Part shown: positions 11,014 to 49,718 of the stretch, piece after piece
Position numbering within the stretch: position 1 is the first letter of the stretch
Layout: every line of letters starts with the position of its first letter
NCBI GenBank assembly: GCA_919902675.1
Contig: CAKKRH010000007.1
Coordinates: 12,942 to 76,941, forward strand
DNA: 64,000 nt
DNA from: Omnitrophica bacterium GWA2_41_15
Lineage (GTDB): Bacteria; Omnitrophota; Gorgyraeia; Gygaellales; UBA12090
Direction of reading: 5' to 3'
The notes under the pieces: model-generated
What the model was told of the DNA's origin: nothing
What the model saw: the letters and a program-made list of their open reading frames with translations, nothing else
The model's database searches: none
Program-made: the position numbers and the translations under genes

Positions 11014-11014
11014 T

Positions 11015-15556: not shown

Positions 15557-18098
<2,542 letters not shown>

Positions 18099-19627: not shown

Positions 19628-19635
19628 AAATTAAT

Positions 19636-20016: not shown

Positions 20017-20022
20017 CGCCAT

Positions 20023-20051: not shown

Positions 20052-20112
20052 TAATTGATGTAATAGCTGCGTAAACAGTCAATAATCGGGGGAAAGATTA
20101 TTACGAAACTTG

Positions 20113-20157
20113 GGATAGGCCCGCCCCGAAGGCGGGACAAGTTTGTCCCGCCTATCC
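20113..20157 (-). other. GC-rich structure with mutually exclusive hairpins between ribE and crcB
   Basis: The outer stem is GGATAGGC / GCCTATCC. GGCGGG (20131-20136) can pair with either CCCGCC at 20120-20125 or CCCGCC at 20147-20152 (extended stem GGCGGGACA / TGTCCCGCC). Confidence 0.5.
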
Positions 20158-20199
20158 AAAGTGTAAATTTCCGCATGTCCCCATTGACGCGTTAGGCGG

Positions 20200-35409: not shown

Positions 35410-35430
35410 TTGCATTTGGCGCGCTACAAT
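35403..35430 (+). promoter_or_regulatory. promoter candidate for the O-antigen-ligase-like gene (short or no leader)
   Basis: Plus strand reads TTGACA (35403-35408), a 16-nt spacer, then TACAAT (35425-35430). The ATG at 35440 is only 9 nt downstream. Confidence 0.5.
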
Positions 35431-35439
35431 TTAAGGATA

Positions 35440-36720
35440 ATGTTTTACGCCATACTCTTATTTATCTTTTACCGGCCCTTTATCTCTTCTTTGTCCTTCC
35501 CGGTTTTAAATTCAGCCTATTCCACCATCTTTCTGCTTTTTCTAATCATCTGGACTATCCTGAAACGCGAAGGCATACAAAAAAACCTCCCGGCAAAACT
35601 AAAGCCACCGCTCATACTCTTCATCCTGTCTCTTATTGTTTCAACCTTATTTTCTCAAAACAAAACCCATAGCCTCCAGGAATTCCCGCAATATCTCATC
35701 GGCCTACTGCTGTTTATGCTCCCGTTCTCATTATCGCCTAAAAACAAAAAGCTCGTCCTTTCAGCCATTATCCTTGCCGGATTAGGCATAAGCCTGCTGG
35801 CTATTTACCAGTATTTATTTGGCTTTGAATATATCCTTGATTATTTAGCCAAAGAAAACACTCCTTCCGCCGGCCTCATCACTTACCTTAGCCAAAGACG
35901 GGCCTTCCTGCCTTTTATCAGCCCAAATACCTTAGCCGGATACCTGATAATGATTATACCCCTAAGCCTGGCCTTTAAAAAGCGGATTTTCTTCATTTTA
36001 CCCCTGGGGCTAGCTTTATTACTCACCAAATCCTTAGGAGCGCTTTTTAGCCTATTCATAGGATCAATGCTATACTTTTACCTAAATAACCAAAAGGGCA
36101 GGCGGAAAATTGCCCTACTTTGCGGTTTCTCGGTGATTATCCTGCTGATTTTTCTTCTTCGCCAAAATAGCGGCTCTCAATTCAACCAACCCGGATTCTC
36201 ATTGCTAAGGCGCTGGGATTATTGGAAGGAAACTGTTGAAATTATAAAGCTTTTCCCCTTTTTGGGGGTGGGATTGGGGGCTCTACATCTCAGCCAGGTC
36301 AGATATGCCCACAACTGCTATTTGCAAATCTGGGCGGAGATGGGAATATTCGGAATCGCTTCTTTCTTTTGGTTGATAGCTGAAACCTATAGTTTAATCA
36401 ATCCTTCGACACCACGGTCTAAAGACCGTGGTTTGCTCAGGATTGATACTGAGAGCGGCGTAACCTTTCCCCGCCCTAAAGGGCGGGGTTTGAACGCCGC
36501 CGAATGTATCAAACGCGATTTTCTAAACAAAAAAAATATTTCTGTATTATCTGCCGCGATATTCACCTTTATCATCCATAATCTGGTTGATTTTACTTTT
36601 TCTCTGCCTGAAACAAGTTTCATCTGGTGGATAATCTTCGGTACCTACATCTCTCTCCATGAGCCTAAAACTACCGCAACATTTGTTGACGGCGGGGGTG
36701 TGCCCGTAACCCTCAGCTGA
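35440..36720 (+). CDS. O-antigen ligase/polymerase-family membrane protein (Wzy_C-like) carrying an in-frame repeat-element insertion
   Basis: Polytopic protein. YAHNCYLQIWAEMGIFG matches the O-antigen-ligase-domain core. The frame stays open through the 36396-36513 element, and TM-like sequence resumes after it (AAIFTFIIHNLVDFTFSLPETSFIWWIIFG). The track start at 35410 is a TTG. Confidence 0.7.
   Translation: MFYAILLFIFYRPFISSLSFPVLNSAYSTIFLLFLIIWTILKREGIQKNLPAKLKPPLILFILSLIVSTLFSQNKTHSLQEFPQYLIGLLLFMLPFSLSPKNKKLVLSAIILAGLGISLLAIYQYLFGFEYILDYLAKENTPSAGLITYLSQRRAFLPFISPNTLAGYLIMIIPLSLAFKKRIFFILPLGLALLLTKSLGALFSLFIGSMLYFYLNNQKGRRKIALLCGFSVIILLIFLLRQNSGSQFNQPGFSLLRRWDYWKETVEIIKLFPFLGVGLGALHLSQVRYAHNCYLQIWAEMGIFGIASFFWLIAETYSLINPSTPRSKDRGLLRIDTESGVTFPRPKGRGLNAAECIKRDFLNKKNISVLSAAIFTFIIHNLVDFTFSLPETSFIWWIIFGTYISLHEPKTTATFVDGGGVPVTLS
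36396..36513 (+). mobile_element. structured repeat element, copy B, inserted in frame in a coding sequence
   Basis: Near-identical (one 1-nt indel) to the reverse complement of 11536-11652. It is translated as about 39 residues, ...NPSTPRSKDRGLLRIDTESGVTFPRPKGRGLNAAECIK..., between hydrophobic segments. Confidence 0.75.
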
Positions 36721-37127
36721 ATTCTCCTCACCGCTATCACAGCGTTTGAGGCATCCAAGACTTCGCCGGTAGCATCAATTATTCTCTCCCCTGTCCCGAG
36801 GCTCACGATATACCTATACCTCCCGCTTCCCATAGACACATTCGTGGAACTGGTTGTGCCGGAGTTAGTTCTGGCCCAGGCCTTGGCCTCTTCAATGCCC
36901 GCCTGGGCTAAATAAAAAGCTGATTGACTGTTCTTTTCTAAGGAGCGCACCTGTATTTCCACATGCCACAAAGAGGCCAAAACAGCCGTTATGACTACCG
37001 CGACCACAAAGAAAAATAAAACAAGCATGAGAATCTGTCCGCTCTTTGCGTTGTTAAGCGACGCGCGGTTAAACTTGCTTTTTGTTCTAGAATTTCTAAT
37101 AGAAATAAAACTTTTTCTCGTTCTCAA
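36645..37127 (-). CDS. PilX-N-like pilus minor component
   Basis: One N-terminal TM (ILMLVLFFFVVAVVITAVL) is followed by SAFYLAQAGIEEA, the pattern seen in PilX N-terminal domains. The start overlaps the upstream ORF by 4 nt (ATGA). Confidence 0.55.
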   Translation of the reverse strand: MRTRKSFISIRNSRTKSKFNRASLNNAKSGQILMLVLFFFVVAVVITAVLASLWHVEIQVRSLEKNSQSAFYLAQAGIEEAKAWARTNSGTTSSTNVSMGSGRYRYIVSLGTGERIIDATGEVLDASNAVIAVRRIQLRVTGTPPPSTNVAVVLGSWREM

Positions 37128-37378
37128 TTTTGATACTCCATGGAAAGAAGTGTGAAATTAGAAGTCCAGCGGGCGATGCCTTTAGAGACGCGGAATTCGT
37201 CTATTTGACCATTCAAACAATTGCCTGTTCCATTAGCCCCTGCTCCAATAAATAATGAGGCTGAAAAATCAGGCACAGCATCAGCATCGCTTTCATCGGT
37301 CCCCAAGTGTTTCTCATTCACAAATATTTTCCAAGTACCTCCATTATCTATGATGACGACATGATACCAAACACTCAC
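37124..37378 (-). pseudogene. C-terminal half of a LamG (concanavalin-like lectin) domain; probable remnant
   Basis: WYHVVIIDNGGTWKIFVNEKHLG...LNGQIDEFRVSKGIARW covers only the second half of a LamG fold. It opens with GTG and is preceded in the same frame by TAA-AAG-TAA. Confidence 0.5.
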
Positions 37379-37438
37379 AATTTGGAATTGGTAGAAGCAT
37401 AAAACTATGAGTTGTGGAGCGATGTCCCGTGCTTACTT

Positions 37439-38110
37439 TTACTGGAAAGAAGAGACTTGACCCTCTGCCATTTCGTCGGCACTTAATACACGGTTAAAAA
37501 CAGCTACCTCATCAATGATGCCGTCGAATGTTGCTGCTCCGTTCTGCTGGTTACCAATAATAAGGGGTTGCGTGTCATCTGCCCGAGAGGCGCCGGTTTC
37601 ATTTTGAGTAACTTTATATGCAAGCTCAACACCGTTTTTATAGATATGTACATTGCTAGCGCTAGTAGACCCATCCCATGTTACCACCATGTACTGCCAA
37701 GTGTTAAAGGAAACTGTATTGTCGGCTGTTGATCTTTTCAAATCAGTATCGCCTTCTTTATAAAAAGTGAACGCATTAACCTCTGGAGCAGTGTTGTCTA
37801 TGGTAAAGGTCCAAAATCCAACATCACCCCAATTAATAGCATTCTTACAAATAATCCTACCACCACCTCCCTCTCCTGCGCTTCTTGGATAAATCCAGGC
37901 TGAAATTGTGATCGGCACAATGTTGTTCAATGTAGATGGATTTCCTACATAAGCATAATCATCCACCCCATTAAAATCCCTGGCCCCGCCAAATTTGCCA
38001 GCCACCACGGTGGTTCCACTCGCCGTAGCATTGTTGGCGTTGACGGTTGAGTCGTATAATGTCGGGCTAGTTTCCTCAAAATGCCAGAGGCCGACGGCGT
38101 TAGCGTTAGC
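37439..38110 (-). CDS. LamG-domain protein; the open frame begins right after the upstream gene's TGA and has no start codon until GTG at 38008
   Basis: FNGVDDYAYVG...ITISAWIYP...WQYMVVTWDG...FDGIIDEVAVFNRVLSADEM is a full LamG_3-type domain. The 34 codons upstream of the tracked GTG (ANANAVGLWHFEETSPTLYDSTVNANNATASGTT) look like the domain's usual first strand. Confidence 0.6.
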   Translation of the reverse strand, partial: ANANAVGLWHFEETSPTLYDSTVNANNATASGTTVVAGKFGGARDFNGVDDYAYVGNPSTLNNIVPITISAWIYPRSAGEGGGGRIICKNAINWGDVGFWTFTIDNTAPEVNAFTFYKEGDTDLKRSTADNTVSFNTWQYMVVTWDGSTSASNVHIYKNGVELAYKVTQNETGASRADDTQPLIIGNQQNGAATFDGIIDEVAVFNRVLSADEMAEGQVSSFQ

Positions 38111-38617
38111 TCAATTCCTGGGACGCGCCTTACTTTTCAGGGTGCAGAAGCGAGTGCCCTTGCGCACGGTAAGCTCGATACTGACTAAATTATTACCGGC
38201 AACGCTAAAGACTGAGTTGGTGTTAGCGACAAGATTGACCAATTCCTTTTTGGAGCTTGAGGAGTTGGCGGATGATAAATTCGCGCCCACACCGCGGAAT
38301 ATAAAGCCGCTATTGCCGTATCCCCCGCCGTCTCCCCGCCAATAAAACACAAGCTCGGTGTCGGCTACCAGCGGCGAACTAAAACATATCCCGTCTATGC
38401 CGACTGTGTTAACCGTGGAATTACGAGCCCGCCTGATTTCATTTACCATAGACTCCATTGCCCAACGGACATTATTAAACAGCTCTATGCCGGACTTTTG
38501 CTTTAGCCAGGCCTGCTGAATTGAGACTAAAGCCATAATTACCGCCAGGGCCACAAAAGTAAGTATGGTAATAGCCACCATCATCTCAATCAGGGTAGTT
38601 CCCCTTTTATTTCGCAT
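38111..38617 (-). CDS. pseudopilin with prepilin-type N-terminal methylation motif (PilW/GspJ-like)
   Basis: MRNKRGTTLIEMMVAITILTFVALAV is a class III signal peptide plus hydrophobic helix with Glu at position +5. Confidence 0.7.
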   Translation of the reverse strand: MRNKRGTTLIEMMVAITILTFVALAVIMALVSIQQAWLKQKSGIELFNNVRWAMESMVNEIRRARNSTVNTVGIDGICFSSPLVADTELVFYWRGDGGGYGNSGFIFRGVGANLSSANSSSSKKELVNLVANTNSVFSVAGNNLVSIELTVRKGTRFCTLKSKARPRN

Positions 38618-38620
38618 TAT

Positions 38621-39103
38621 TTAATAATTAGCTTTTAAAGAATAAGCGGAAAAACTCCCCCCGCTCCAGGATACGGTCGCATTGAGCTGCTTAAGAGGAG
38701 TTGAAGCATACAGCGGCCCATCGGTAATTGTCAAGACACAGCTATAGATAATACTATTAATGGTGCTAGATGGATATGCGTATGTCCCATTTGTCACTAT
38801 TCCGTCAGAGACGCCATCCAGCGCGTCCAAAGCTGACCATGAGCTGTATTCCTCCAACATCTGCCTGGCCAAACTACAAGCGCCGATATACTTCATACTC
38901 TTGGTGTTGGCGCCATACCCCTGGCTGATGATCTGTATGGTGTAGACAAAGAATAAAGACATTAACGTGATCCCCACTATAGTCTCAAAAACACTAAACC
39001 CCCAAACCTTTTTTCTGGCTAAGCTTTTAATGCTCTTAAAAGGTTTGAGGGCTGATTTTCTATTTCCGGGTATTGTCTGCTTTATAGCTAAAGGCGCAAC
39101 CAT
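38621..39103 (-). CDS. pseudopilin (PilV/GspI-like)
   Basis: A long leader precedes GFSVFETIVGITLMSLFFV, a prepilin cleavage/methylation-type segment. Confidence 0.6.
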   Translation of the reverse strand: MVAPLAIKQTIPGNRKSALKPFKSIKSLARKKVWGFSVFETIVGITLMSLFFVYTIQIISQGYGANTKSMKYIGACSLARQMLEEYSSWSALDALDGVSDGIVTNGTYAYPSSTINSIIYSCVLTITDGPLYASTPLKQLNATVSWSGGSFSAYSLKANY

Positions 39104-39157
39104 ATGATAGACATTATTCCAAGAATTATACTGCCGGCGGTTGTTCCGATTTAGAAA

Positions 39158-39631
39158 TCATTCTATCTTGGTGTAACCGGTATCATAATACACCGTGATA
39201 TTCTTTGTCTTCCCCTGATTTTCTAAAGAAAAACTGCTGACGGCCCCGCCGCTTCCGTTTTCCGCGTATATATTGCCCCGGGGAGAATAAATCCAGAGGT
39301 TTACCCGCGCCAACTGCAGCGATACTTTCATCATCACATCTTTTAAAAGATTTTCCGCCGTTAAATCCGCGGATGTTCCGGTAGGCGACTTATACACAGA
39401 ATATTTACTGGGAACAGCATTAGTGAAGACCACCGCGTGCCCTGCGTTAGTAGCCACAGTCCTTTGCCTGGCCCAGGAGATATCGCTTACGGCCTTTCTG
39501 GTCTCCGCGTCCAGAATTAAAGAACGCAGGCTGTTAACCGCGACCACGGTTGTTCCGGCCATCGTAGCCACGATTACCAAAACTACCATGGTTTCCGCCA
39601 GGGTGAAACTGCGGCGTTCTTTCTTTACCAT
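39158..39631 (-). CDS. pseudopilin (GspH/FimT-like)
   Basis: KERRSFTLAETMVVLVIVATMAG is a prepilin-type N-terminus. Size and position fit GspH/FimT-type minor pilins. Confidence 0.6.
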   Translation of the reverse strand: MVKKERRSFTLAETMVVLVIVATMAGTTVVAVNSLRSLILDAETRKAVSDISWARQRTVATNAGHAVVFTNAVPSKYSVYKSPTGTSADLTAENLLKDVMMKVSLQLARVNLWIYSPRGNIYAENGSGGAVSSFSLENQGKTKNITVYYDTGYTKIE

Positions 39632-39645
39632 GAAAGAGCCTTTCT

Positions 39646-40185
39646 TTAGTTAACCTCGCCATCCCGGGAAACCAAAATATTCACGGTATAAGCGCTTCCG
39701 ACGGGGATGTAACGGACCCATCCGCTTGAGGCATTAAGCGTGATATCTATAAAGCGGTCCAACCTTTGGGCGTCAGCTAAAGGCACGCTGGTTATAGAAA
39801 TATACCTCTCTCCCGCGAGTGATAAATTAAAGTTTGCCCCTGAAGACAAGCTATACCAGGCGTATGTGCCTCCCCAGGGATCAGCAACCTGCCAGCGATC
39901 TAAATATGGACCATCCCAGGTTGCCGATATGCTGCCACCCGGATCTACCATAAAATCCGCTCCGGTAGCAGATGTTGCCGGCCATACTTTATTATCGGAA
40001 AAATAAGCTACTGCCGCGTTCTTGACTGCCCCATAAAACTTCTCAACCGCGGAGGTCTTTCCCTTGTTTATATTCCGGTAAATCTGAGGAAGCACGCCCA
40101 CAGCCAAAGCAGCCAATACCGCGATAACCACCATTAATTCTATTAAGGAAAAACCATTATGCTGATGCGCGCTACGATACATCAT
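39646..40185 (-). CDS. type IV pilin / GspG-like pilin, paralog 2
   Basis: NGFSLIELMVVIAVLAALAV (G|F cleavage site, E+5). It shares DGPYLDRWQ...PWGG with the neighbouring pilin. Confidence 0.75.
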   Translation of the reverse strand: MMYRSAHQHNGFSLIELMVVIAVLAALAVGVLPQIYRNINKGKTSAVEKFYGAVKNAAVAYFSDNKVWPATSATGADFMVDPGGSISATWDGPYLDRWQVADPWGGTYAWYSLSSGANFNLSLAGERYISITSVPLADAQRLDRFIDITLNASSGWVRYIPVGSAYTVNILVSRDGEVN

Positions 40186-40191
40186 AGAAAA

Positions 40192-40677
40192 TTAACTTAC
40201 CGGGCCATCACGGGAAACCAAAATAGACAAAGTAGTTCCGCTATAACGGACCCATCCCGTAGTTGCACCAGATGTACCATCCGTATGCAAATCTATCCTT
40301 GCGGAATCCGCGGCTGGCACGAGAGTAGCCGTAATATACCTTTCTCCGGCAGAAGCGCCAAAAGTTGTACCGGTTTGATTAACCCAAGTAAATACCCCAC
40401 CCCAAGGATTAGTTGATTGCCAGCGATCAAGATACGGCCCGTCCCAAGTCGCGGCTCCGGTTGTAATCAGAAAACCATTAGTATCTGCCGGCCAAGACAT
40501 ATTATCCGAATAAAAACTAGTGGCCCCAGTCTTTACTGCCGCGTAAAATTGTTCGCAGGCGGCGGTTTTGCCCTTATTTATCTGCCGGAAAACCTGAGGC
40601 GAAATAACCGCCAATAACACCCCGATAATAGCAATAACCACCATTAACTCAATTAAAGTAAAAGCCTTCTTCATCAT
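40192..40677 (-). CDS. type IV pilin / GspG-like pilin, paralog 1 (likely major subunit)
   Basis: MMKKAFTLIELMVVIAIIGVLLAV. It is the first pilin after pilB, and AAGGAGG precedes its start. The -1 residue is Ala rather than Gly. Confidence 0.75.
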   Translation of the reverse strand: MMKKAFTLIELMVVIAIIGVLLAVISPQVFRQINKGKTAACEQFYAAVKTGATSFYSDNMSWPADTNGFLITTGAATWDGPYLDRWQSTNPWGGVFTWVNQTGTTFGASAGERYITATLVPAADSARIDLHTDGTSGATTGWVRYSGTTLSILVSRDGPVS

Positions 40678-40810
40678 CTTTTGTTACCTCCTTTTCATTT
40701 CCTGATTAATAAAATTATGCCGGCTCACTAAGGAAAATGCAACTCGTTATGGTAAATTTGCCTATGTAAAGCATATCACATCTTCACCTCCTTTTCAAGG
40801 CTGCCTATGG

Positions 40811-42487
40811 CTAACTCCCTGACTCTATAGTGATGCGAATTACCTCCTCAGCGCTAATCAGGCCGGACAACAACTTATCGACAGCTGTTTTTCTTAAGGT
40901 CTCCATTCCTTCTTTTATCGCGGCGAGACGAATCTCCTCCGCGGATGCCTTCCTTAACACCAAATCCTGAATAGCCGGACTTACGCAAAGCAGTTCAAAA
41001 ATGCCTACCCGCCCCTTGAAGCCGCTTTGAGCGCAATACTGACAGCCTTTTCCCCGGTTAAACTTTACCCCTTTAGCTATCATATTCTCCAGGCCAAGAG
41101 TCTTCAGCACTTCATCGCTGGGGATATACTCCTCCTTGCACTTATCACAAATTCGTCTGGCCAGCCTCTGGGCAAGCACTCCCAGTAAAGCGGAAGATAT
41201 TAAAAACGGCTCTATACCCATATTGATCAGACGGGTAAAAACGGTCGCGGCATCATTAGTATGTATGGTTGAAAACACAAGGTGTCCGGTTAAAGCGGAC
41301 TGCACCGCGATCTCCGCGGTCTCCCGGTCGCGTATTTCTCCCACCATAATAATATTAGGGTCCTGCCTTAAGAAAGAACGCACGGCCACGGCGAAGGTGA
41401 GGCCGGACTTAGGGTTCACGTGAACCTGGCGCATCCCAGGGAATTGATATTCCACGGGATCCTCCACGGTCATTATGTTTATATTCTCTTTATTAAGCAA
41501 TTGGAGGGCAGCGTATAAGGTGGTGGTCTTCCCGCTTCCGGTCGGGCCGGTAACCAGGATTATTCCGTAAGGAGAAGCGATTAACTCCTTGGATAAGCGC
41601 AATTCGCGCTCGGGAAAGCCCAGGGAATCCAAGGTTAAAGTAAGGCTGGATTTATCCAGGATCCTCAATACCACATTTTCTCCGTAAACCGTAGGGCAGG
41701 TGGAAACCCGGAAATCTATGTCCCGGTTACCTATCTTCATCATAATCCTGCCGTCCTGGGGCAGGCGCTTGTCGGCGATGTCTAATCCGGACATAATCTT
41801 AATCCGGGAAATAATCGCTCCGGCTAAATCTATAGACAGAGAGTAGTTCCGATGCAGCATGCCGTCAACGCGGTAACGGACATTCAAAATCCTCTTTTCC
41901 GGCTCAATATGTATATCGGAGGCCCTAAGCTGGACAGCCTGAAAAATCAGGTAATTAACAATTTTAACGATGGGCGCGTCCTCGCCCTTCTTTTCCATCT
42001 CCGCCAGCTTAGTCTTGTCTATTGAAGCGATGATTTCATCCAGACTACTGATGCCGCCAAAACACTGATCCTGGACCTTGCGGATTTCAAGCTCATCGGC
42101 AAAAACCGGATCAATAGTATAATGGGTCATTCGCCGCAATTCATCTATAATCATTACATTATTAGGCTCAGCCATAGCTATGGTGAGAATATTCTCAATC
42201 AGGAATACGGGAACAACCCTATACTTACGGGCGAAATCCTCCGGCACAAGCTTAAATACCTCAGGGCTGATGAGATAAGATGAAAGATTAAAAGCGGTAA
42301 CTCCGCTTTGTATAGACAGGTAGCGCTCGCGATCTTCAAGGTTAAGCCAGCCTTTGCGCACCAAAATCTCACCTATCTTTTCGCCGGTTTGCTTCTGCTC
42401 TTTTAATACCTCCTCAAGCTGAGACTCAAGAATCAGCCCCTGTTCCACCAGCACTTCGCCAATTTTCTTATTAATAATTATCGACAT
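40811..42487 (-). CDS. pilB: type IV pilus assembly ATPase (GspE/PilB family) with MshEN-type N-terminal domain
   Basis: 558-aa ORF. It has Walker A GPTGSGKTT, Asp/His boxes and a tetracysteine motif (CDKC...CQYC). The N-terminus has two 24-residue KIGExLV...G..L....L...L..Q motifs. Confidence 0.9.
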   Translation of the reverse strand: MSIIINKKIGEVLVEQGLILESQLEEVLKEQKQTGEKIGEILVRKGWLNLEDRERYLSIQSGVTAFNLSSYLISPEVFKLVPEDFARKYRVVPVFLIENILTIAMAEPNNVMIIDELRRMTHYTIDPVFADELEIRKVQDQCFGGISSLDEIIASIDKTKLAEMEKKGEDAPIVKIVNYLIFQAVQLRASDIHIEPEKRILNVRYRVDGMLHRNYSLSIDLAGAIISRIKIMSGLDIADKRLPQDGRIMMKIGNRDIDFRVSTCPTVYGENVVLRILDKSSLTLTLDSLGFPERELRLSKELIASPYGIILVTGPTGSGKTTTLYAALQLLNKENINIMTVEDPVEYQFPGMRQVHVNPKSGLTFAVAVRSFLRQDPNIIMVGEIRDRETAEIAVQSALTGHLVFSTIHTNDAATVFTRLINMGIEPFLISSALLGVLAQRLARRICDKCKEEYIPSDEVLKTLGLENMIAKGVKFNRGKGCQYCAQSGFKGRVGIFELLCVSPAIQDLVLRKASAEEIRLAAIKEGMETLRKTAVDKLLSGLISAEEVIRITIESGS

Positions 42488-42526
42488 TTTATGCCTTCAA
42501 CTTATAGTCTATGGACTTTTTATCAG

Positions 42527-43339
42527 CTACCAGACTTTTTCCCGCCACCAGGAATCAAGCTTTTTAGCCTTGCCTAAGAAACCCTTCAAAATCCCCGGTT
42601 TATTTTCCCGGCTCATATTAAAACAAGAAATCTGATCATTTCTTAATTTCTTAGAATTACCATTCTTCCCAGAGAGACTATTTTCTTTAATTTCTTCTTT
42701 CTGTTTCTCGCTTACTTCCTTAGCCGGGCGCGGCTCTGCTTGGACGGTATCGCGCGCTGACCGGCTTTCGCGCTCTTCCTTCAAAGCCTTAAGCTGACCC
42801 TCCAGGGAAACCTTTTCCTTACGCAATTTATCTAACTGTTTCCTGGTCAGGGCCTCTTCTTTAGAATAATCAGCCTCACGGCTTGCTTTACGGCCAATAG
42901 CTTCTTCCTTGGGCGGCGCTGGTTGGGCCTTTTTTAATTCTTCGATTGTCTTATTTTTCTTTTGAATAAAGGCGGTAGACTGCTCCGGGGAATTTAAAAG
43001 CTCTTGATTATTATGGCGCGAGGACTGTTGCTTTGACTGTGAATCTTTAAATTTAGTTTCTGTGGCTATTTTTTCACTTTGCGGGGCGTCCGGATCTTTT
43101 TTTTCTTTTTTTACCTTTTGTTCCTCAGGGCTTTGCTTCTTGCTTAAAATATCCTCATACTTTATTTTAAGCGACTCAACCGCTTTTTCTTCCTCAATAA
43201 TATTAGCCTGAAGCCTCTCCAGATACAATTCCATCTGCTCATTATCAGACTTTAAAGGTGAACTATAGGCCGGATAATCAACTAAAAAACAAATCCCCCA
43301 TAGACAGAGAAATAATGCCGTCCGATTAACTTTCATCAA
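42527..43339 (-). CDS. secreted Lys/Glu/Gln-rich coiled-coil protein, unknown function
   Basis: A signal peptide (ALFLCLWGICFLVDYPAYS) is followed by low-complexity charged sequence. It overlaps the secretin stop by 4 nt, so it is co-translated in the pilus operon. Confidence 0.5.
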   Translation of the reverse strand: MMKVNRTALFLCLWGICFLVDYPAYSSPLKSDNEQMELYLERLQANIIEEEKAVESLKIKYEDILSKKQSPEEQKVKKEKKDPDAPQSEKIATETKFKDSQSKQQSSRHNNQELLNSPEQSTAFIQKKNKTIEELKKAQPAPPKEEAIGRKASREADYSKEEALTRKQLDKLRKEKVSLEGQLKALKEERESRSARDTVQAEPRPAKEVSEKQKEEIKENSLSGKNGNSKKLRNDQISCFNMSRENKPGILKGFLGKAKKLDSWWREKVW

Positions 43340-44586
43340 TTACTTTCCTTAACGTTTTCCTCTTCCTTCTTGATTTTCTCTTCCAGCTCTTTTCTTTCTT
43401 TCAGCAGACTGCTTTGCTTCTCAGTTAACGTTTTAAGCTGGCCGATAACACGGGTGGCCTCTTTGGCTTTTTCCGCGACATCCTGGGCCAAGAGCCGGCC
43501 TTCCTGCTTCTGTTTTTCTTCATCAAGACTATTATCTAAGCCAGACTGCTTATTCTTCTGCATCCGCACAGATAGATCAGGAGTAATTATGGTGGGTGAA
43601 ATAAATATAAGCAATTCCGTCTTATCCACCGTATCCTTCTTGCTCTTAAAAAGATATCCTAAAAATGGCATATCCCCTAATAAAGGAACCTTAGTCTCTC
43701 CCTTAGTGCTTTTTTCCTTAATTAATCCGCCGATAATCAGGGTCTGGCCGTTTTTTACCACTACCTTAGTGGAAGCGCTGCGTTTATCAATCACCGGAAC
43801 TGTGTAAGGCACTGAGGTTGTGCCCTGGGTAACAGTCAGAGTGTAATCCGAGGTCTTATCGCTTATCTCCGGGTTAAGCACCATAGTAATATTGCCGTCG
43901 TTATTTATAATCGGCGTAGTTTTAAGGATAATCCCCACTTCCTCAAAATTAATTTTCCAGCTTACCGTAACGCTCCCGGAATCACCGGTAACCTGCACAT
44001 CCGGTTCAGCCCAGGGGAGGGATTGAATCACCTTAATTTCCGCCTCCCGATTATTCACCGTAGCCACCCGGGGCGCTGAAAGAACATTAGTATCCAGAGA
44101 ATTAGCCAAGGCCTGAAGTATAACATTTATATCTTCATCAAATATGCCAAAAGTAAAAGGGGATTCCGAGGTTGTACCGGTAATCGGGGGATAATTAGTG
44201 TTTTTATATGAAATGTTCTGCTTCAGGCCCTCTGTGAATTGACCTAACGCGGAAGAACTTCCCAGCTCATACTGCCCGAAAGGCATATGCTTCTTATCAG
44301 CTAAAAGCTGCCAATTCACCCCCAGGGCGTGTTCTTTTTGCAGCTTCACCTCCACCACCCTGGCCTCAATCATTACCTGCTGAGAAGGCACATCTATCAT
44401 ATCTAAATATTCCTTCACCCGTTCCACATTCTCAGGATGGTCAATCACCACTATTGAATTTGGCTCATTGCCATAAAGCACTTTACCGCTGGACGATAGA
44501 AGGCTCCTGATGCTACTGTTTTGCTCCTGGGCCAAAACAGAAGCCACGCTAAAAATAGAAAACAGAAATATAAAGGCGTATTTCAT
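43336..44586 (-). CDS. secretin (GspD/PilQ C-terminal pore domain) with its own signal peptide
   Basis: MKYAFIFLFSIFSVASVLAQ is followed by an N1-type domain and the secretin core (VLSAPRVATVNNREAEIKV...VPLLGDMPFLGYLFK...LLIFISPTII). A coiled-coil tail follows. GGAGG precedes the ATG. Confidence 0.85.
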   Translation of the reverse strand: MKYAFIFLFSIFSVASVLAQEQNSSIRSLLSSSGKVLYGNEPNSIVVIDHPENVERVKEYLDMIDVPSQQVMIEARVVEVKLQKEHALGVNWQLLADKKHMPFGQYELGSSSALGQFTEGLKQNISYKNTNYPPITGTTSESPFTFGIFDEDINVILQALANSLDTNVLSAPRVATVNNREAEIKVIQSLPWAEPDVQVTGDSGSVTVSWKINFEEVGIILKTTPIINNDGNITMVLNPEISDKTSDYTLTVTQGTTSVPYTVPVIDKRSASTKVVVKNGQTLIIGGLIKEKSTKGETKVPLLGDMPFLGYLFKSKKDTVDKTELLIFISPTIITPDLSVRMQKNKQSGLDNSLDEEKQKQEGRLLAQDVAEKAKEATRVIGQLKTLTEKQSSLLKERKELEEKIKKEEENVKESN

Positions 44587-44608
44587 ATCCTAACCTCCTA
44601 TTGGCGAG

Positions 44609-45403
44609 TTAACTCCCAGCTGAGGAAGAAGCAATGTCGGATTGAGTATTATGTTCCACTTCCACAACATCCGACGCTTTTGAAGAAGCAGCATCGGATT
44701 GAGTATTACGTTCCACTCCCACAACATCCGACGCTTTTAAATATTTAAGCTTAAAAATCCGGCTAGACATCTTGTAGTCTACTTCCTTAAGATAATCCTC
44801 TACTTTCTTGATATTGGGCGGATAATCTATAACCATAATTGAATTAGGTTGTTGCCCCAGGAAAACCTGGCCTTTGGCGGATAAAAGGTCATAAATGGTA
44901 TTTTCTTTTTTAACCGTTTCCCCGTTCTCCGCGGAAGATAAAACGGTTCGCGCTTCAATATGCCTGAGGATAAAAATCTTGGTAATCAGGTTAGGCTTCA
45001 CCTTTATAAAACTGCCGTTTTTTTCAATAGTAAGATTAAGTGACTCGGCAACCGCTTCTAGAAATTGTTCCAGGGAAACACTGGTCATAGTAGCGGTTAT
45101 TTTTCCCTCTACCTCATTATCCACCAGCAGGTTAAGCTTATGATCATAGGCTAAAACCCGGAAAATATCCCTTATCTGGGCGTCTTTAAGCTCAAAAGAA
45201 TAAGCCTGATTTTCACTATCCAGGCGTTCTATTTTCATAACCGGCCCATCAGCCGGCGGCACTACTTCTTCCGCTTGAACATCCTTAGCGCTATCCACCA
45301 CCGAAGACTGCTCCCCTGCGCCTTCCGGCATTTGGGCATAAACAGATATATTTGTCCCAACAGAGAACAACATTGCTACCGCGATAATAATCAGAAAACT
45401 CAT
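44609..45403 (-). CDS. secretin N-terminal module protein (STN/N0-like plus one N1-like domain) encoded separately from the pore
   Basis: After the signal peptide, FELKDAQIRDIFRVLAYDHKLNLLVDNEVEGKITATMTSVSLEQFLEAV is STN/N0-like. Then LLSAKGQVFLGQQPNSIMVIDYPPNIKKVEDYLKEVD parallels LLSSSGKVLYGNEPNSIVVIDHPENVERVKEYLDMID in the next gene. Confidence 0.65.
   Translation of the reverse strand: MSFLIIIAVAMLFSVGTNISVYAQMPEGAGEQSSVVDSAKDVQAEEVVPPADGPVMKIERLDSENQAYSFELKDAQIRDIFRVLAYDHKLNLLVDNEVEGKITATMTSVSLEQFLEAVAESLNLTIEKNGSFIKVKPNLITKIFILRHIEARTVLSSAENGETVKKENTIYDLLSAKGQVFLGQQPNSIMVIDYPPNIKKVEDYLKEVDYKMSSRIFKLKYLKASDVVGVERNTQSDAASSKASDVVEVEHNTQSDIASSSAGS
44625..44738 (-). repeat. 2 x 57-bp in-frame tandem repeat at the 3' end of the secretin-N gene
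   Basis: The units at 44625-44681 and 44682-44738 differ at a few positions. They encode KASDVVGVERNTQSDAASS and KASDVVEVEHNTQSDIASS. Confidence 0.85.
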
Positions 45404-45849
45404 TTTTCGCTCCCCTTATTTAATATCAACAGATATTTCTGGCCACTCATATCCTTTAATGTAACCATTCGGGGCTGGATTTCAACTATTTTTTTACTAT
45501 TCGCGTCTATCTCATCCCCAACCTTACAGATCATCCCGTTGATAATCGCCTTGTTTTCTGTTTTTGCCTGAGAACAAAAAATAGCGCTCAGGTTAAAATA
45601 ATCCAGCACAACAGGCGCCGGCGGCTCTTTGGGCCCGAAAAGATCCCCCTCTTCTTCAAAACTAAGGAAAGGATTTAGTCTGACCGGCCCAGCAAGGAAA
45701 ACGATTTGCTCCTGCCTAATGACTGCCGCATCGGTTTTAGCCTCCGGCAGGACAGGCTGGCCAACAGCTATAGTTACATCCTGCTTCAAATATGCCGAAA
45801 ATAAGATTAACCACGAAATTATTATCTTGGCCGCTCTCTTATGGTTCAC
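45400..45849 (-). CDS. periplasmic protein, PilP/GspC-like C-terminal beta domain (weak)
   Basis: It has an N-terminal hydrophobic anchor. The C-terminus AIINGMICKVGDEIDANSKKIVEIQPRMVTLKD resembles the PilP/GspC pattern. It shows 4-nt overlap coupling with the next gene. Confidence 0.4.
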   Translation of the reverse strand: MNHKRAAKIIISWLILFSAYLKQDVTIAVGQPVLPEAKTDAAVIRQEQIVFLAGPVRLNPFLSFEEEGDLFGPKEPPAPVVLDYFNLSAIFCSQAKTENKAIINGMICKVGDEIDANSKKIVEIQPRMVTLKDMSGQKYLLILNKGSEK

Positions 45850-46033
45850 CGGCTCCCCCCATTATTTTCCTTAACTTAATAATATCTTCTTGGGTATAGC
45901 AACGCCAGCGATTAATCGAGTTCCTTCTGGGTTTAGGAAAAATCCCTTTTTTCTCATAACGGAATAAAGTCTGCTTGGAGATACCTAATCTTTCCACAGC
46001 CTCCTGAGTAGTAAGAAAGCGCATCCTTCTCAT
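45839..46033 (-). CDS. small helix-turn-helix DNA-binding protein (MerR/excisionase-type HTH)
   Basis: FLTTQEAVERLGISKQTLFRYEKKGIFPKP...RWRCYTQEDI is a typical HTH_17-like pattern. The protein is 64 aa. Confidence 0.65.
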   Translation of the reverse strand: MRRMRFLTTQEAVERLGISKQTLFRYEKKGIFPKPRRNSINRWRCYTQEDIIKLRKIMGGAGEP

Positions 46034-46105
46034 AATTTGTTAAACTTAGCTGATATTTAACTATATTAGATGTTACCTGGTAATATTTGACAATATCTAC
46101 TAATA

Positions 46106-46134
46106 CTTATATATAATAAGGCATAACTTGTCAA
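46106..46134 (-). promoter_or_regulatory. internal promoter candidate upstream of the HTH gene
   Basis: Minus strand reads CTTGACAAG with TTGACA at 46129-46134, a 17-nt spacer, then TATAAG (46106-46111). The region is AT-rich, so the chance of a spurious match is not negligible. Confidence 0.4.
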
Positions 46135-46167
46135 GTTTTAATTTAACTTTTTAAAAAGCGGGGATAT

Positions 46168-46698
46168 TTAAGGTGAAAGAGTATAGATGAGTAACTGCAG
46201 ATAAATTTTTTGGGCAGGCAAATAATTCTCGTCACGCTCAATCTTTAACATTTCAACCGTGAATAACCTTTCTGTGTTCATTAATTCTTCAAAAAAATAA
46301 AGGAAGGCGGAATAATCTCCCTGAAAATTAATTTCCAGGCGGGTGGGAACAAACCCGTCATCCAGCGGTAAAGATTCATCACTCACATCTATGGTAATAT
46401 CCTTAAGCCCGGTCCGGGCGGCCTGGCGCATAAGCGTTTTTATAAAAGCAAGCGGTTGTTTCTCGTTAGCCGGGACCCGTCTTAGAATTAAGGCTTCCTG
46501 AGTATCCAAGTCCTTGCTTTGCTTTTCCAGCTCTGACAGGCGGTTCTGCTGGCCTTGAAGCATCAGAAGCGCCTGTTTCTTTTTAGTTATTTCTTCTTCT
46601 AAACCCGCGTTGACTCTGATTTGACCAATGCAATAGGTAAGTAATATTCCCACCCCTAAAATGACCACGAGACTGGCCAAAACCACCGTCTTCTTCAT
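46168..46698 (-). CDS. pilO: PilO-like pilus assembly protein
   Basis: 176-aa ORF with an N-terminal TM, a coiled coil (KKKQALLMLQGQQNRLSELEKQ) and an alpha/beta C-domain. It sits immediately after the PilM-PilN gene with a 4-nt overlap. Confidence 0.55.
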   Translation of the reverse strand: MKKTVVLASLVVILGVGILLTYCIGQIRVNAGLEEEITKKKQALLMLQGQQNRLSELEKQSKDLDTQEALILRRVPANEKQPLAFIKTLMRQAARTGLKDITIDVSDESLPLDDGFVPTRLEINFQGDYSAFLYFFEELMNTERLFTVEMLKIERDENYLPAQKIYLQLLIYTLSP

Positions 46699-48512
46699 TT
46701 ACCCTCCGCTATCTCAGCGCTTAGGCTAAATTTCCTTATTCGTGAACCGGTAAGGCGCGATTCTTGTCCGTTACCTCCAAAATCAGCGCTATTTATCTGT
46801 TCTAGGCTTAAAGGCGTCAAGCTTACCTTGCTGAAGTATTGCGACGATTCCAACCGCCCTTTAAATAACTCAACTATCTCAAGGGCGCGCTCGTAATCCG
46901 CCAAGACCCAGGCTTCAATTTTCATTCTAAACGACGCGTCCTCAACGGCTCCCCCCAAAGCTATCTGCCCTGGACCCTCCTGCCGCTCAATAGATAAACT
47001 GCTCCTGGCGGCGGTAAATCTATTAAAAACAACCTCTCGCGGAATGAGATTGGTTATTATTCTTAACAGCGAATGAAACCTCTTGGTTTTATCGGAAAGA
47101 AGGTTAAACTTGAAAAATCGCTGATCCAGTATATTTTTCTGCTGGCTTAACGCGTTCATTCTTTCGCTAATATCTTTAAAACCGCTCAACTCTAAATCAA
47201 GCCGCGCGATTTGTTTTTGAAGATAACCCCTCTGGGCCAGGATATACCCGCCTGCCAGAATAAAAATAAAAGCCAACCCCAGGGCAATTAAGAATAATAC
47301 CGGACTCCACCGGGCGGCTGTTTCTTTACGCTTAAACTCCTTAGGAAGAAAATTAACGACCGCGTCCTCGCTGCCTTTAACCCAGGCCAGGCTAATAGCG
47401 TTAGCATATATGGCCGCGGACAAAATGATTTCATTGCTTATATTCTTTGTTTCTACCGCTTTCAAATTGGCAAAAGGCTTAACAATCCCGCCTTCCCCGC
47501 CAATTAGTCCGGCCAGCATGGAAACAAGATTTTTTATCAGGCATCCCCCTCCCAGAAAATAAACACTCTCTACCCTCCTGCCCGCGGAATGTTCTTTATA
47601 ATAAATAAATGTCCGCCTTAATTCTTGAATCATTCTTTCAATGTGTGCCTGCCAAAGCATTCTTAATTCCAGACGATTTATTCTGGAGGCGCCTGGAAGC
47701 GATGGATCCTTGCCGGCTTCATATTTTTGGCGCATTATTTCTTCAACAATCGCCACTTTATTCTTAATATCAAAATCTACCTGGGGCACGCCCTCTTCTC
47801 TTATTATTCTTTCCGCTTCCGCGGGCGAAATACCTAACTGAGCGGAAATATCCTTTGCAATATCCCGCAGGGAATAACCCAGGCTTCGCGTAGAAACTAA
47901 TTTTCCATTCCTGGAAATAGAAATATTTAAATTACTCACCCCCAGGTCAACGAAAGCGATATCCTCATCCTTTTTCCAAGTCTCTTTGGGCGACAGATAG
48001 GCTATCGTGCAAGGAGAAGGAGCAATTAAAGAAGGAATAATGTCCGCGTTTTTACAAAGGTCGAGTATTCTCTGGACATGTTTATTTTCAGTCCTGATTA
48101 CCGAAACTTCAAACTTACGATTATCAGGACTGCCGCTTTCACCAACAAAAGAACATTCAAAATTATGATCCGCGGTAGAGGCAGGGATCATTGTGCGTTT
48201 GGCTTCAACTATGGCCGCCAAAAACAATTCCGACATATTCATTTTCGGCAAAGACACAACTATAGTAGATATATATTCCGGCGCCAGCGTTATCGCGACT
48301 TTGGATCTTCTAAGCCTGGAGAGAGAAATAAAGGTAAAAATCTGTTTCCAGAAGCCAGATGGATCAATTTCTTTTGAAACGGCATCCGGCTGAAAAACCG
48401 CGTAAGGAGTTTTAAATATGAAAACATTTGACAAGAGGAGGGTTTTTCTTCGCTCCATCCTGGCTATCTTGGTAGTATCCGCCCCTATGTCTATAGCTAT
48501 TATCTCCACCAC
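46695..48512 (-). CDS. PilM-PilN fusion protein
   Basis: The N-terminal actin-like ATPase fold (IIAIDIGADTTKIA...FVDLGVSNLNISI...LGGGC) is PilM. After a TM (WSPVLFLIALGLAFIFILAGGYIL), a coiled coil and a PilN-like periplasmic domain follow. Confidence 0.7.
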   Translation of the reverse strand: MVEIIAIDIGADTTKIARMERRKTLLLSNVFIFKTPYAVFQPDAVSKEIDPSGFWKQIFTFISLSRLRRSKVAITLAPEYISTIVVSLPKMNMSELFLAAIVEAKRTMIPASTADHNFECSFVGESGSPDNRKFEVSVIRTENKHVQRILDLCKNADIIPSLIAPSPCTIAYLSPKETWKKDEDIAFVDLGVSNLNISISRNGKLVSTRSLGYSLRDIAKDISAQLGISPAEAERIIREEGVPQVDFDIKNKVAIVEEIMRQKYEAGKDPSLPGASRINRLELRMLWQAHIERMIQELRRTFIYYKEHSAGRRVESVYFLGGGCLIKNLVSMLAGLIGGEGGIVKPFANLKAVETKNISNEIILSAAIYANAISLAWVKGSEDAVVNFLPKEFKRKETAARWSPVLFLIALGLAFIFILAGGYILAQRGYLQKQIARLDLELSGFKDISERMNALSQQKNILDQRFFKFNLLSDKTKRFHSLLRIITNLIPREVVFNRFTAARSSLSIERQEGPGQIALGGAVEDASFRMKIEAWVLADYERALEIVELFKGRLESSQYFSKVSLTPLSLEQINSADFGGNGQESRLTGSRIRKFSLSAEIAEGK

Positions 48513-49718
48513 CTAATCTCCAATAACCTGTGCCAACTGAAACATAGGCAGCAGGACCGAAATAGCGATACCCCCCACTACTACGCCTATCACCACAATC
48601 ATTGCCGGCTCAAAAAAAGTAAACATCATTTTTATGGTCGCGGGAACTTCCCGGTCATAAAATAGATTGACCTTGTCCAAGGCCTCAGGAAGCGAGCCTG
48701 ACTGTTCGCCCACACCAATCATACGCACCACAAGCGGGGGAAAATCTCCAGTTGCCTGCAAAGAGGTAGAAATCTTTTCTCCCACATTCACTGAATCGCG
48801 CGCCTTGGCCACTGAACGCTCTAAACGGATATTACCGACCACTTCACTGGCAATATCTAAGGAGGACAAAACAGTCACCCCTGACTTCAAAGATATGGCA
48901 AAGGTGCGACAAAACCTGGAGAGGGCAACCTTGCGTAAAAGCTCTCCAAAAACAGGTAGCTTTAGCTTAAAATTGTCTATCACATACCTGCCTCCCGGTG
49001 TAGAATAATAAAATTTATACCCGACGACCAGTAAAACCGGTGTCGCCAGACACAGATACCAAAAACTACGGACAAAACTACTTACTCCTAACACAATACG
49101 GGTGGGCAAAGGCAAAGATATCCCCCCCTGGGCAAACAACGGTTCAAAAATAGGAATCACCTTGACTACTAGTAAAATCACCACCCCCATCATCGCGCAA
49201 ATAAGCGTGAGCGGATAGACCATAGCCTCAGTCATCTTTGACTTCAATTCCAACTGCCACTCCAGAAGTCCAATCAAGTCTTTAAGGGCGCTCAATAATT
49301 TGCCTGTACTTTCTCCGGCGCCCACAATAGACGTATATATCTTCGGAAAAGATTTAGGATGATAGGATAACGATTCCCGCAGGGACATTCCGCCTTCCAC
49401 GCGCAGACGTATATCCTCAATCAGCTTACGGACGTCATCTACCGCGGCGTCTCTGGCTAAATCCCCCAAAGCCGAAGAAAGATGCGCTCCGGAATCAAGC
49501 AAAGCGTAAAGATGAATGGTAAAGGTAAGGACATCCCTGGGCTTAAGCCGACGGAGTCTATAATTTACCTTAACGGGGTTGGCGACAACTTTGGCGCGGA
49601 TAAGATAGTGCCCTAGGCCGGAAACCTTATTGGCCAGATCCAGATCATTTTCGGCCGGGATAACGCCGTGCAGGACCTTCCCCAAACTATCACTGGCAGT
49701 ATAGGAATAGGTTTGCAT
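48513..49718 (-). CDS. pilC: type II secretion system F family platform protein (PilC/GspF)
   Basis: 401-aa ORF with a duplicated T2SSF domain, three TM segments and a C-terminal ...PMFQL pattern. Confidence 0.9.
   Translation of the reverse strand: MQTYSYTASDSLGKVLHGVIPAENDLDLANKVSGLGHYLIRAKVVANPVKVNYRLRRLKPRDVLTFTIHLYALLDSGAHLSSALGDLARDAAVDDVRKLIEDIRLRVEGGMSLRESLSYHPKSFPKIYTSIVGAGESTGKLLSALKDLIGLLEWQLELKSKMTEAMVYPLTLICAMMGVVILLVVKVIPIFEPLFAQGGISLPLPTRIVLGVSSFVRSFWYLCLATPVLLVVGYKFYYSTPGGRYVIDNFKLKLPVFGELLRKVALSRFCRTFAISLKSGVTVLSSLDIASEVVGNIRLERSVAKARDSVNVGEKISTSLQATGDFPPLVVRMIGVGEQSGSLPEALDKVNLFYDREVPATIKMMFTFFEPAMIVVIGVVVGGIAISVLLPMFQLAQVIGD

Follow-up and report, generated by a model that had tools for sequence, protein, structure and literature searches.

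A probable type IVa-like pilus locus of Candidatus Omnitrophota with a fused PilM-PilN, a two-piece secretin and a LamG-linked minor pilin interrupted by stop codons

Which filament machine is encoded by a gene cluster whose assembly genes resemble those of a type IVa pilus (T4aP) and whose pilins resemble those of a type II secretion system (T2SS)? The question is raised by a minus-strand block of ~13 kb (36645–49718) within a 64-kb stretch of DNA on contig CAKKRH010000007.1, in the following called the window, for which a first-pass annotation made from the letters alone had proposed a hybrid with non-standard architecture. We consider it quite likely that the cluster encodes a T4aP-like pilus, a type IV filament, of Candidatus Omnitrophota, in a form shared by this phylum. 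We read it as an adhesive pilus gated by cyclic di-GMP (c-di-GMP), in which both c-di-GMP binding and adhesion are predictions. Its PilM and PilN form one polypeptide, its secretin is encoded by two genes, and one minor pilin is followed in frame by pieces of LamG lectin modules from which a stop codon separates it.

Open reading frame (ORF) calls, translations, and Pfam and NCBIfam matches bore out the gene order proposed at first pass, with every named gene present and in the order given:

48513–49718, minus strand: pilC/GspF-type inner-membrane platform protein, 401 amino acids (two Pfam T2SSF matches, E = 2.5e-48)
46695–48512, minus strand: PilM-PilN fusion, 605 amino acids (Pfam PilM_2/FtsA)
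46168–46698, minus strand: PilO, 176 amino acids, with an N-terminal transmembrane helix (Pfam PilO above cut-off, E = 1.2e-6)
45839–46033, minus strand: helix-turn-helix (HTH) protein of the MerR/excisionase type, 64 amino acids (Pfam MerR_1, E = 6e-10)
45400–45849, minus strand: connector, 149 amino acids, membrane-anchored, with a small C-terminal beta domain (CdsD_C and T2SSB below cut-off)
44609–45403, minus strand: secretin N-terminal half (secN), 264 amino acids (NCBIfam PilQ N-terminus, E = 3e-19)
43336–44586, minus strand: secretin C-terminal half (secC), 416 amino acids (Pfam Secretin, E = 2e-46)
42527–43339, minus strand: K/E/S-rich protein, ~269 amino acids, with a signal-peptide-like N-terminus (no family match)
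40811–42487, minus strand: PilB-type assembly ATPase, 558 amino acids (Pfam T2SSE, E = 7e-138, and MshEN, E = 3e-18)
40192–40677, minus strand: pilin 1, GspG-like, 161 amino acids (N_methyl, E = 2e-7; NPWGG motif; C-terminal Ser)
39646–40185, minus strand: pilin 2, GspG-like, 179 amino acids (Pfam T2SSG above cut-off, 29.4 bits; DPWGG motif)
39158–39631, minus strand: minor pseudopilin pp3, GspH/ComGD-like, 157 amino acids (N_methyl, E = 3e-4; NCBIfam ComGD, 9e-5, and GspH, 1e-4)
38621–39103, minus strand: minor pseudopilin pp4, 160 amino acids (prepilin motif G↓FSVFE after a 36-amino-acid leader)
38111–38617, minus strand: minor pseudopilin pp5, at the GspJ/PilW position, 168 amino acids (N_methyl, E = 2e-7; G↓TTLIE; TGA stop at 38113–38111)
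37439–38110, minus strand: LamG1, in the pp5 frame (Pfam Laminin_G_3, E = 2e-24)
37124–37378, minus strand: LamG2, a half-module (Laminin_G_3 profile positions 80–142 only)
36645–37127, minus strand: PilX/GspK-like last minor pilin, 160 amino acids from a TTG start (weak GspK match, E = 0.03)

The statement that most junctions are overlaps of 1–4 nt was overstated: this holds for four of the 15 junctions, and the others comprise one overlap of 11 nt, one abutting pair and gaps of 3–134 nt. An identical PilM-PilN protein is encoded on contigs of 115 kb and 2.15 Mb from Hainich groundwater metagenomes. The host is a Candidatus Omnitrophota bacterium from this groundwater, and its cell is probably ultra-small.

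To place the cluster, we scanned one genome per species (GTDB) for related loci and mapped all window proteins onto the 36 loci obtained, most of them labelled Omnitrophota and several bearing Planctomycetes-type or other labels that stem from automated submission. These loci, given L numbers below, hold subsets of one gene set in conserved order. The full order is found in L010, L016, and L026 and runs from the HTH gene over (the 149-amino-acid connector), secN, secC, pilB, the pilins, pp3, pp4, pp5, and pilX to pilC, pilMN, and pilO. In the window and in its relative L003 this order is permuted, with pilC-pilMN-pilO shifted to the front, and the resulting junction from pilO to the HTH gene is also present in L015. 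PilC is 47–65% identical to that of the window across the 36 loci, pilO follows pilMN in most of them, pp3 keeps its position in many, and pilX follows pp5 in about 30. The architecture is therefore not peculiar to this locus, as had been proposed, but a permuted version of a layout common to related, mostly Omnitrophota-labelled loci. A DUF3108-like gene upstream of pilC was considered as a further part of the system and rejected, as it is not conserved in the relatives. As far as the presence of T4aP is concerned, Omnitrophota pili are already known: when Seymour et al. (2023) surveyed the phylum with TXSScan, 135 of 141 Velamenicoccia genomes, and most species belonging to the other classes, had type-4a pilus genes (PMC10066038).

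Two side observations concern these loci. In L004, L006–L009, L015, L022–L024, and L029, 2.5–3.5 kb without matches to any window protein lie between the pilin paralogs and the minor pilins; these gaps may hold large pilin-linked or adhesin genes that the window lacks. L007 contains, at 16209–20356, a second, divergent PilM-N-like gene (22% identical) adjoining a single-gene secretin, which suggests that this genome has a second, paralogous system whose secretin is unsplit.

The PilM-PilN protein was listed at first pass as the product of a single fusion gene, and its conservation as a family, its PilM fold and its NFLP motif in cis confirm this. Among 68 homologs, 67 are related to it at 27–83% identity, mostly with lengths of 575–662 amino acids and mostly aligned over the full length; those with a named source come almost all from Candidatus Omnitrophota. 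The AlphaFold2 model, with a predicted local distance difference test (pLDDT) score of 82.6, consists of an actin-like domain (residues 1–380), a long helix (391–489), and a ferredoxin-like domain (494–601). The predicted transmembrane segment (398–416) lies inside the long helix, with a coiled coil and the periplasmic ferredoxin-like domain beyond it. In a Foldseek search with this model the ten best matches were all T4aP PilM proteins (from Pseudomonas aeruginosa, Myxococcus xanthus, and Thermus), followed by FtsA. The match to Thermus PilM had a target TM-score (template modelling score) of 0.84, and GspL was not found among the top 50. Directly after the actin-like domain follows the sequence VNFLP, in which N387, F388, and P390 are invariant across the family alignment; we take its position to correspond to the N-terminal PilN peptide that docks into PilM in known PilM:PilN complexes. 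For PilO, the only NCBIfam match was a weak one to GspM (E = 0.007).

A fused PilM-PilN is also encoded by Clostridioides difficile (PMC6916266). That organism, however, is a monoderm without a secretin, and a review has proposed a different PilM-PilN contact motif for monoderms (PMC6916266), whereas the window protein keeps the diderm-type N-F-L-P motif between its two domains.

The second peculiarity is the secretin, which had been noted at first pass as encoded by two genes. Both halves begin with a typical signal peptide ending in A↓Q, and two ORFs, each with a signal peptide, also encode the secretin in seven other loci (L003, L010, L015, L016, L026, L031, and L035). The PilB proteins of these seven genomes are only 60–81% identical to that of the window; the more distant L037 has a single secretin of 635 amino acids. 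An exhaustive HMMER search with the N-terminal half over 1.84 billion representative proteins yielded 74 clusters at E ≤ 1e-30, 71 of them shorter than 400 amino acids. Its AlphaFold2 model (pLDDT 80) shows a signal helix, a disordered linker, two folded domains, and a disordered S/T-rich tail, and Foldseek matched the folded part to the N0-N1 domains of PilQ, XcpQ, InvG, and GspD (E ~1e-8). The C-terminal half contains one N-type domain, the secretin barrel, and a K/E-rich tail, with PDB matches to GspD and PilQ. The split has an N1-type domain on either side, residues 178–237 of secN resembling residues 6–65 of secC. All secretin domains are present, but spread over two ORFs instead of the single polypeptide of PilQ. 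Taken together, a large clade of Omnitrophota probably builds its pilus secretin from two separately exported polypeptides.

An assembly or sequencing error as the cause of the split was rejected because the split is conserved in seven other genomes. At the split point, the region 44609–44720, encoding the disordered C-terminal tail of secN, carries a tandem duplication of 19 amino acids (ASDVVGVERNTQSDAASSK / ASDVVEVEHNTQSDIASSS); the secN tails of the relatives are likewise of low complexity and unrelated in sequence.

A phrase search of the literature turned up no account of T4P or T2SS secretins being split, and as far as we found, the conserved two-polypeptide form appears new in detail for these secretins. 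The only precedent we found for a split secretin is the rhizobial type III secretion system (T3SS), in which the N- and C-terminal parts are likewise separate genes, RhcC1 and RhcC2, and the split is conserved across the lineage (PMC3574062). RhcC1/RhcC2 belong to another secretin subfamily, that of T3SS, and their two genes often lie far apart, whereas the window genes are adjacent, each with its own signal peptide and with an N1-type domain on both sides; the likeness is organizational only. The T3SS secretin model SctC scored far below GspD and PilQ for the window secretin.

The secretin genes are part of a larger module. Immediately in front of the connector and secretin genes, homologs of the MerR-type HTH gene are found in L003, L010, L015, L016, L026 (two copies), and L035 (two copies). 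Of the eight other loci with the secretin N-terminal half, these six have the HTH gene at the head of the secretin module. Because it directly precedes the connector and secretin genes in these six loci, the 64-amino-acid protein is a conserved part of the secretin module, which it probably regulates. The HTH gene had been described as having its own promoter-like site; the gene is real, but the site (46141–46113) is weak, matching the consensus at 9 of 12 positions, and the region has 39 promoter-like sites of such strength compared with 26 expected by chance.

The connector always lies immediately before the secretin N-terminal half. In six of the seven family members Pfam finds CdsD_C (E down to 1e-6) and T2SSB (E down to 6e-5), with no match reaching its gathering cut-off. 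The homologs in L010, L015, L016, and L035 carry a lipobox-like Cys, as PilP does, and the window protein has a hydrophobic anchor only. GspB ends in a C-terminal domain of the HR type, which binds secretin N0. The connector gave neither of the matches that a GspC would be expected to give, T2SSC and PDZ, and has only the small T2SSB/CdsD_C-like domain. Its assignment as PilP/GspC/GspB-like is plausible but not established. The protein encoded between secC and pilB (K 16%, E 13%) has no family match in Pfam or NCBIfam and was found only in the closest relatives L003 and L039.

The assembly ATPase points in the same direction as PilM-N. Over its full length, PilB aligns in the PDB only with PilF and PilB, its best matches (509–521 bits); its core alone scores equally against the solved PilF and EpsE (~402 bits each). 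The N-terminus contains the c-di-GMP-binding MshEN motif (NF053729, 56.5 bits against a cut-off of 38), both halves of which are readable in residues 8–60. This motif is shared with MshE of the Vibrio cholerae mannose-sensitive haemagglutinin (MSHA) pilus. The secretin, however, matched MshL with 189 bits, below the cut-off of 250 bits for that model and below GspD and PilQ, and no other Msh-specific NCBIfam models matched the window proteins.

Five proteins with prepilin-type N-termini and one PilX/GspK-like protein make up a major pilin and a minor set. Pilins 1 and 2 are paralogs (51% identical), and several pilin paralogs occur in many related loci. As stated at first pass, both are GspG-like and carry the PWGG motif, with NCBIfam GspG as the best match at E = 2e-14 for pilin 1 and 1e-13 for pilin 2, both below the cut-off. 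No family in Pfam or NCBIfam matched pp4 above noise. The PilX/GspK-like protein has a transmembrane segment (26–44), and its hydrophobic segment lacks Glu5. At position −1 of the prepilin site, pilin 1 has Ala and pp3 has Ser, both conserved in L039 and L040; across all loci, this position is occupied by G in 76, S in 16, and A in 15 cases. The leader of pp4 is conserved at 36 amino acids in L039 and L041. The non-Gly residues and this long leader are a hint of a prepilin peptidase of relaxed specificity.

The choice between a pilus and a secretion system depends on how these components are weighed. With NCBIfam, the ATPase scored 623 bits with PilB (equivalog cut-off 676) and 588 with GspE, the platform 296 with PilC and 328 with GspF, the secretin 217 with PilQ and 235 with GspD, and the pilins 23–33 with PilA and 51–54 with GspG (cut-off 89). 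Such scores do not tell PilC from GspF for the platform protein, and the PDB matches of pilins and secretin do not separate T2SS from T4P. The hybrid character noted at first pass is real at the level of these best family matches. It would nevertheless reflect deep divergence rather than a mosaic of two systems: the cluster appears to be a deeply branching type IV filament system and not a chimera, and annotators meeting a "hybrid T2SS/T4P" look in such loci should consider this origin. The features favoring T4aP are the PilM-type instead of the GspL-type fold, the Pfam PilO match above cut-off, the PilB/MshE-type N-terminus, the lectin-bearing minor pilin of close relatives described below, and the several pilin paralogs in many loci.

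Compared with the diderm T4aP of M. xanthus, Thermus thermophilus, and P. aeruginosa (PilBCMNOPQ), the window shares the PilB-type ATPase, PilC, the PilM fold, the PilN motif, PilO, and the secretin, as well as a major pilin and four minor pilins in the order FimU-PilV-PilW-PilX or GspH-I-J-K. It differs in that PilM and PilN are one polypeptide and the secretin is two polypeptides without AMIN domains. Furthermore, its pilins are short, GspG-like, and without a disulfide-bonded D-region, PilY1 is missing, the PilP equivalent is recognizable only by sub-threshold T2SSB/CdsD_C matches, and instead of a linked pilT, pilD, or pilSR there is the small MerR-type HTH gene. With the T2SS (GspC-M) it has in common the GspG-like pilins, the H-I-J-K-like minor set, the marginally better GspF and GspD scores, the GspL-like topology of PilM-N, and the lack of a linked retraction ATPase. 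In contrast to T2SS, it has a PilM-type cytoplasmic domain, MshEN on PilB, no PDZ-bearing GspC, and a lectin minor pilin in relatives.

Several points weigh against a T4aP-like pilus. All subtype-specific NCBIfam models of the core components stayed below their curated cut-offs, and the pilins, PilC, and the secretin scored slightly better with the T2SS models. The assignment of the connector rests only on sub-threshold matches, and its family profile gave chance-level matches to the PDB and nothing credible. A tblastn search with PilB found no PilT-like paralog in the window, and no prepilin peptidase motif matched in any frame of it, as stated at first pass; likewise, the 611 kb covered by 41 related loci contain no pilT close to the cluster. 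A non-retractile fiber or a secretion pseudopilus is possible with no linked pilT. Finally, the stop between pp5 and LamG parts pilX from its usual translational coupling, which could impair assembly of the tip complex.

The most serious alternative is a genuine T2SS. The GspG-like pilins would then assemble into a short pseudopilus within the periplasm, which would drive folded proteins (large adhesins or hydrolases, perhaps) out through the secretin; PilM-PilN would take the role of GspL and PilO that of GspM. This alternative draws on the GspG, GspF, and GspD scores, on GspM as the sole NCBIfam match of PilO, and on the missing pilT in the window and the 41 loci. The gene set G, G, H/I/J/K-like, E, F, L-like, M-like, C-like, and D equals the T2SS core. 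GspL has the topology of an actin-like domain in the cytoplasm joined to a bitopic periplasmic one, and the PilM-PilN fusion matches it. In addition, giant genes of Omnitrophota have been reported to have T2SS-like loci beside them (10.1101/2023.11.21.568195). Against it stand the full PilM/FtsA-type fold of the cytoplasmic domain, with T4aP PilM in all top ten places and GspL absent from the top 50, the kept PilN docking motif NFLP, the Pfam match of PilO above cut-off, and the PilB/MshE-type N-terminus with full-length matches to PilF and PilB. The several pilin paralogs in many loci and the detection of type-4a pilus genes across Omnitrophota by TXSScan (PMC10066038) also speak against it, and a lectin-type module grafted on a minor pilin, as in the relatives, fits an exposed adhesive tip better than a periplasmic piston. 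We regard a T2SS as unlikely on this evidence.

For the T4aP-like pilus, the established roles of the homologous T4aP and T2SS parts suggest the following mode of action. The assembly ATPase PilB would be activated by c-di-GMP via its predicted MshEN domain and would rotate the PilC platform to add pilins. The PilM-PilN polypeptide and PilO would form the inner-membrane alignment ring, which the membrane-anchored connector (lipid-anchored in relatives) would join to the secretin by binding N0 of the secretin N-terminal half. This half would be a periplasmic N0-N1 piece docking on the N-domain ring of the C-terminal half, which supplies an N-domain and the outer-membrane barrel. The fiber itself would consist of the two short GspG-like pilins, primed by pp3, pp4, pp5, and the PilX/GspK-like protein, which would sit at its tip; in the closest relatives, the LamG module of pp5 would be a tip adhesin. 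The likely use of such a fiber is to attach the bacterium to a surface or to the cell of a host or prey.

Bacteria of the phylum Omnitrophota are abundant, have not been cultured, and are often ultra-small; an attached or predatory life is suspected for them, with pili as the main candidate for attachment (PMC10066038). A pilus machine with a conserved two-piece secretin and a fused PilM-PilN in this phylum raises the structural question of how a secretin ring is assembled and gated when its N0-N1 ring is a separate protein.

The LamG region shows what became of the tip module in this genome. LamG pieces are present as claimed at first pass, but none of them stands as a gene of its own: they share the frame of pp5 and are set apart by stops. 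The pp5 frame continues past the TGA into a complete LamG1, which has no start codon before its first strand and is ended by TAA-AAG-TAA. The frame beyond these stops runs for 19 codons to the C-terminal half of a second LamG, whose stop lies 4 nt into pilX, an overlap as in the relatives. Searching with a conceptual pp5-LamG fusion identified three single-ORF proteins (P0069, P0070, and P0071) of 375–392 amino acids with N_methyl and Laminin_G_3 domains, two of which (P0070 and P0071) align over 92–95% of the query. Pilin and lectin thus form one polypeptide in these relatives, whereas the TGA separates them in the window. The respective contigs (L039–L041) have the order pilB, pilin1, pilin2, pp3, pp4, pp5-LamG, pilX, followed by a convergent Wzy-like gene; their PilB is 94% identical to that of the window, and the window pp5 is 79–82% identical to the pilin part of the three proteins.

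The junction codon is TGA in the window and AGA or AGG (Arg) in the relatives. DNA homology to L039–L041 is lost at ~38114, no more than 4 nt from the TGA, and sets in again at 37370 or below, so that the replaced segment (~38113–37371) measures 743 bp in the window versus 404 bp in L040. LamG1 is 45–51% identical to the non-pilin LamG proteins P0072 and P0075, while LamG2 and the 3′ end of the pp5-LamG gene of L040 are 79% identical in DNA. LamG1 accordingly looks like a foreign LamG that overwrote the N-terminal half of the ancestral pp5-linked module and brought its own stops, and LamG2 like the remnant C-terminal half of that module. No repeats flank the replaced segment, and we found no evidence there for a site-specific cassette mechanism. 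A match of LamG1 to TafC was discarded: this subunit of haloarchaeal Tat fimbriae has nothing but the LamG domain in common with it and is not a relative of this system.

Among P0069–P0071, the pilin moieties are 92–99% identical and the LamG modules only 40–52%. Judging from these sequences, the module appears to have been exchanged between strains, and because it differs so strongly between strains with nearly identical pilin moieties, it is the probable determinant of what the pilus binds and a place to look for differences in host range. A strain-variable lectin module on a single minor pilin, here broken by stops, appears new in detail. The nearest analog described so far is the modular pilin PilC of Streptococcus sanguinis, in which a ConA-like lectin module binds glycans and which modelling places in a tip-located minor-pilin complex (PMC9934059). 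It shares with P0069–P0071 a pilin moiety with a grafted ConA/LamG-type module (PMC9934059). In the window, in contrast, a stop splits the pilin from a module that is itself a mosaic; the bacterium is a diderm, the pilin moiety occupies the GspJ/PilW position, and glycan binding by LamG is a prediction.

Two trivial causes of the stops were rejected: an alternative genetic code, as TGA ends 15 of 62 genes, and assembly or sequencing error, as a second, independent long-read assembly contains identical stops. A stand-alone pp5 of the same length without LamG occurs in L003 and in most other Omnitrophota. Most likely, pp5 is made here without a lectin, as an ordinary minor pilin, and the LamG pieces are remnants that stay silent. 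Since the stop codon cuts the lectin module off from its pilin, the module is weak evidence for adhesion in this genome. The first-pass idea of an adhesion fiber has some support, from pp5-LamG in close relatives, from MshEN on PilB, and from the lack of a linked pilT in 41 loci.

One could instead imagine infrequent readthrough of the TGA, or a population in which this codon varies; a minority of pili would then carry a lectin tip, and the LamG region would serve as a cassette-exchange site for adhesin specificity. LamG1 is complete, exactly in the pp5 frame, and without its own start codon before the first strand; the readthrough product of 392 amino acids would have the size and architecture of the intact relatives, the TGA is one base away from the AGA of L039, and the LamG modules diverge strongly between strains with nearly identical pilin parts. 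The RNA after the TGA, however, is no more stable than shuffled sequence (z = +0.37), TGA is an ordinary stop here, the two assemblies share it, no repeats flank the replaced segment, and with stand-alone pp5 being normal in other Omnitrophota (e.g., L003), a plain nonsense or truncation state suffices. We consider readthrough very improbable. Scarcely better are the chances of the wider notion of a stop-codon-gated tip adhesin, in which readthrough or reversion of the UGA and cassette exchange would retarget an ultra-small, possibly host-dependent bacterium to new surfaces or hosts. Equally doubtful, and very unlikely in our view, is a state of decay in which the cluster has ceased to produce filaments in this population: the three in-frame stops and the half-deleted LamG in the minor-pilin region, a pilX without direct coupling to pp5, and the lack of pilD and pilT in the window would fit, but all 15 other genes are intact full-length ORFs, 94% (PilB) to ~80% identical to relatives with an intact region, pp5 ends exactly where stand-alone pp5 ends in other Omnitrophota, and pilD and pilT are commonly unlinked from pilus clusters.

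The surroundings of the T4aP-like cluster, read by eye, contain housekeeping genes (ligA, a rib operon, ftsK, pnp, and rpsO) and glycan-synthesis genes. Convergent with pilX and overlapping its 3′ end, a gene on the plus strand (35410–36720) encodes a membrane protein of 436 amino acids resembling Wzy_C/O-antigen ligases (Pfam, E = 4e-16); a Wzy_C-like gene beside pilX is also present in L003 (74% identical), L040, and L041. The pilin of P. aeruginosa 1244 is glycosylated at its C-terminal Ser by an enzyme of the Wzy_C type. Because pilin 1 also ends in Ser, as at that glycosylation site, the Wzy_C-like protein could by analogy be a pilin O-glycosyltransferase.

On the other side, GC content falls from ~45% to 31–36% between 50000 and 64000. 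This segment is a dense minus-strand glycan-synthesis island with Pfam matches to GT2, GT9, a DegT aminotransferase, several radical-SAM enzymes, a polysaccharide deacetylase, and large polytopic membrane proteins, and it may have been acquired horizontally. Farther away, the minus strand at 9892–11034 encodes a protein of 380 amino acids with a signal-peptide-like N-terminus, which consists for the most part of highly charged repeats (DKAENKFDRREDFRDRREDIRD...) and ends in a Gly/His/Arg-rich tail. A protein of 118 amino acids encoded at 7823–8179 on the minus strand resembles, as read by eye, a PilZ c-di-GMP receptor (RKHPR...); together with MshEN on PilB, this candidate suggests c-di-GMP signaling in this genome.

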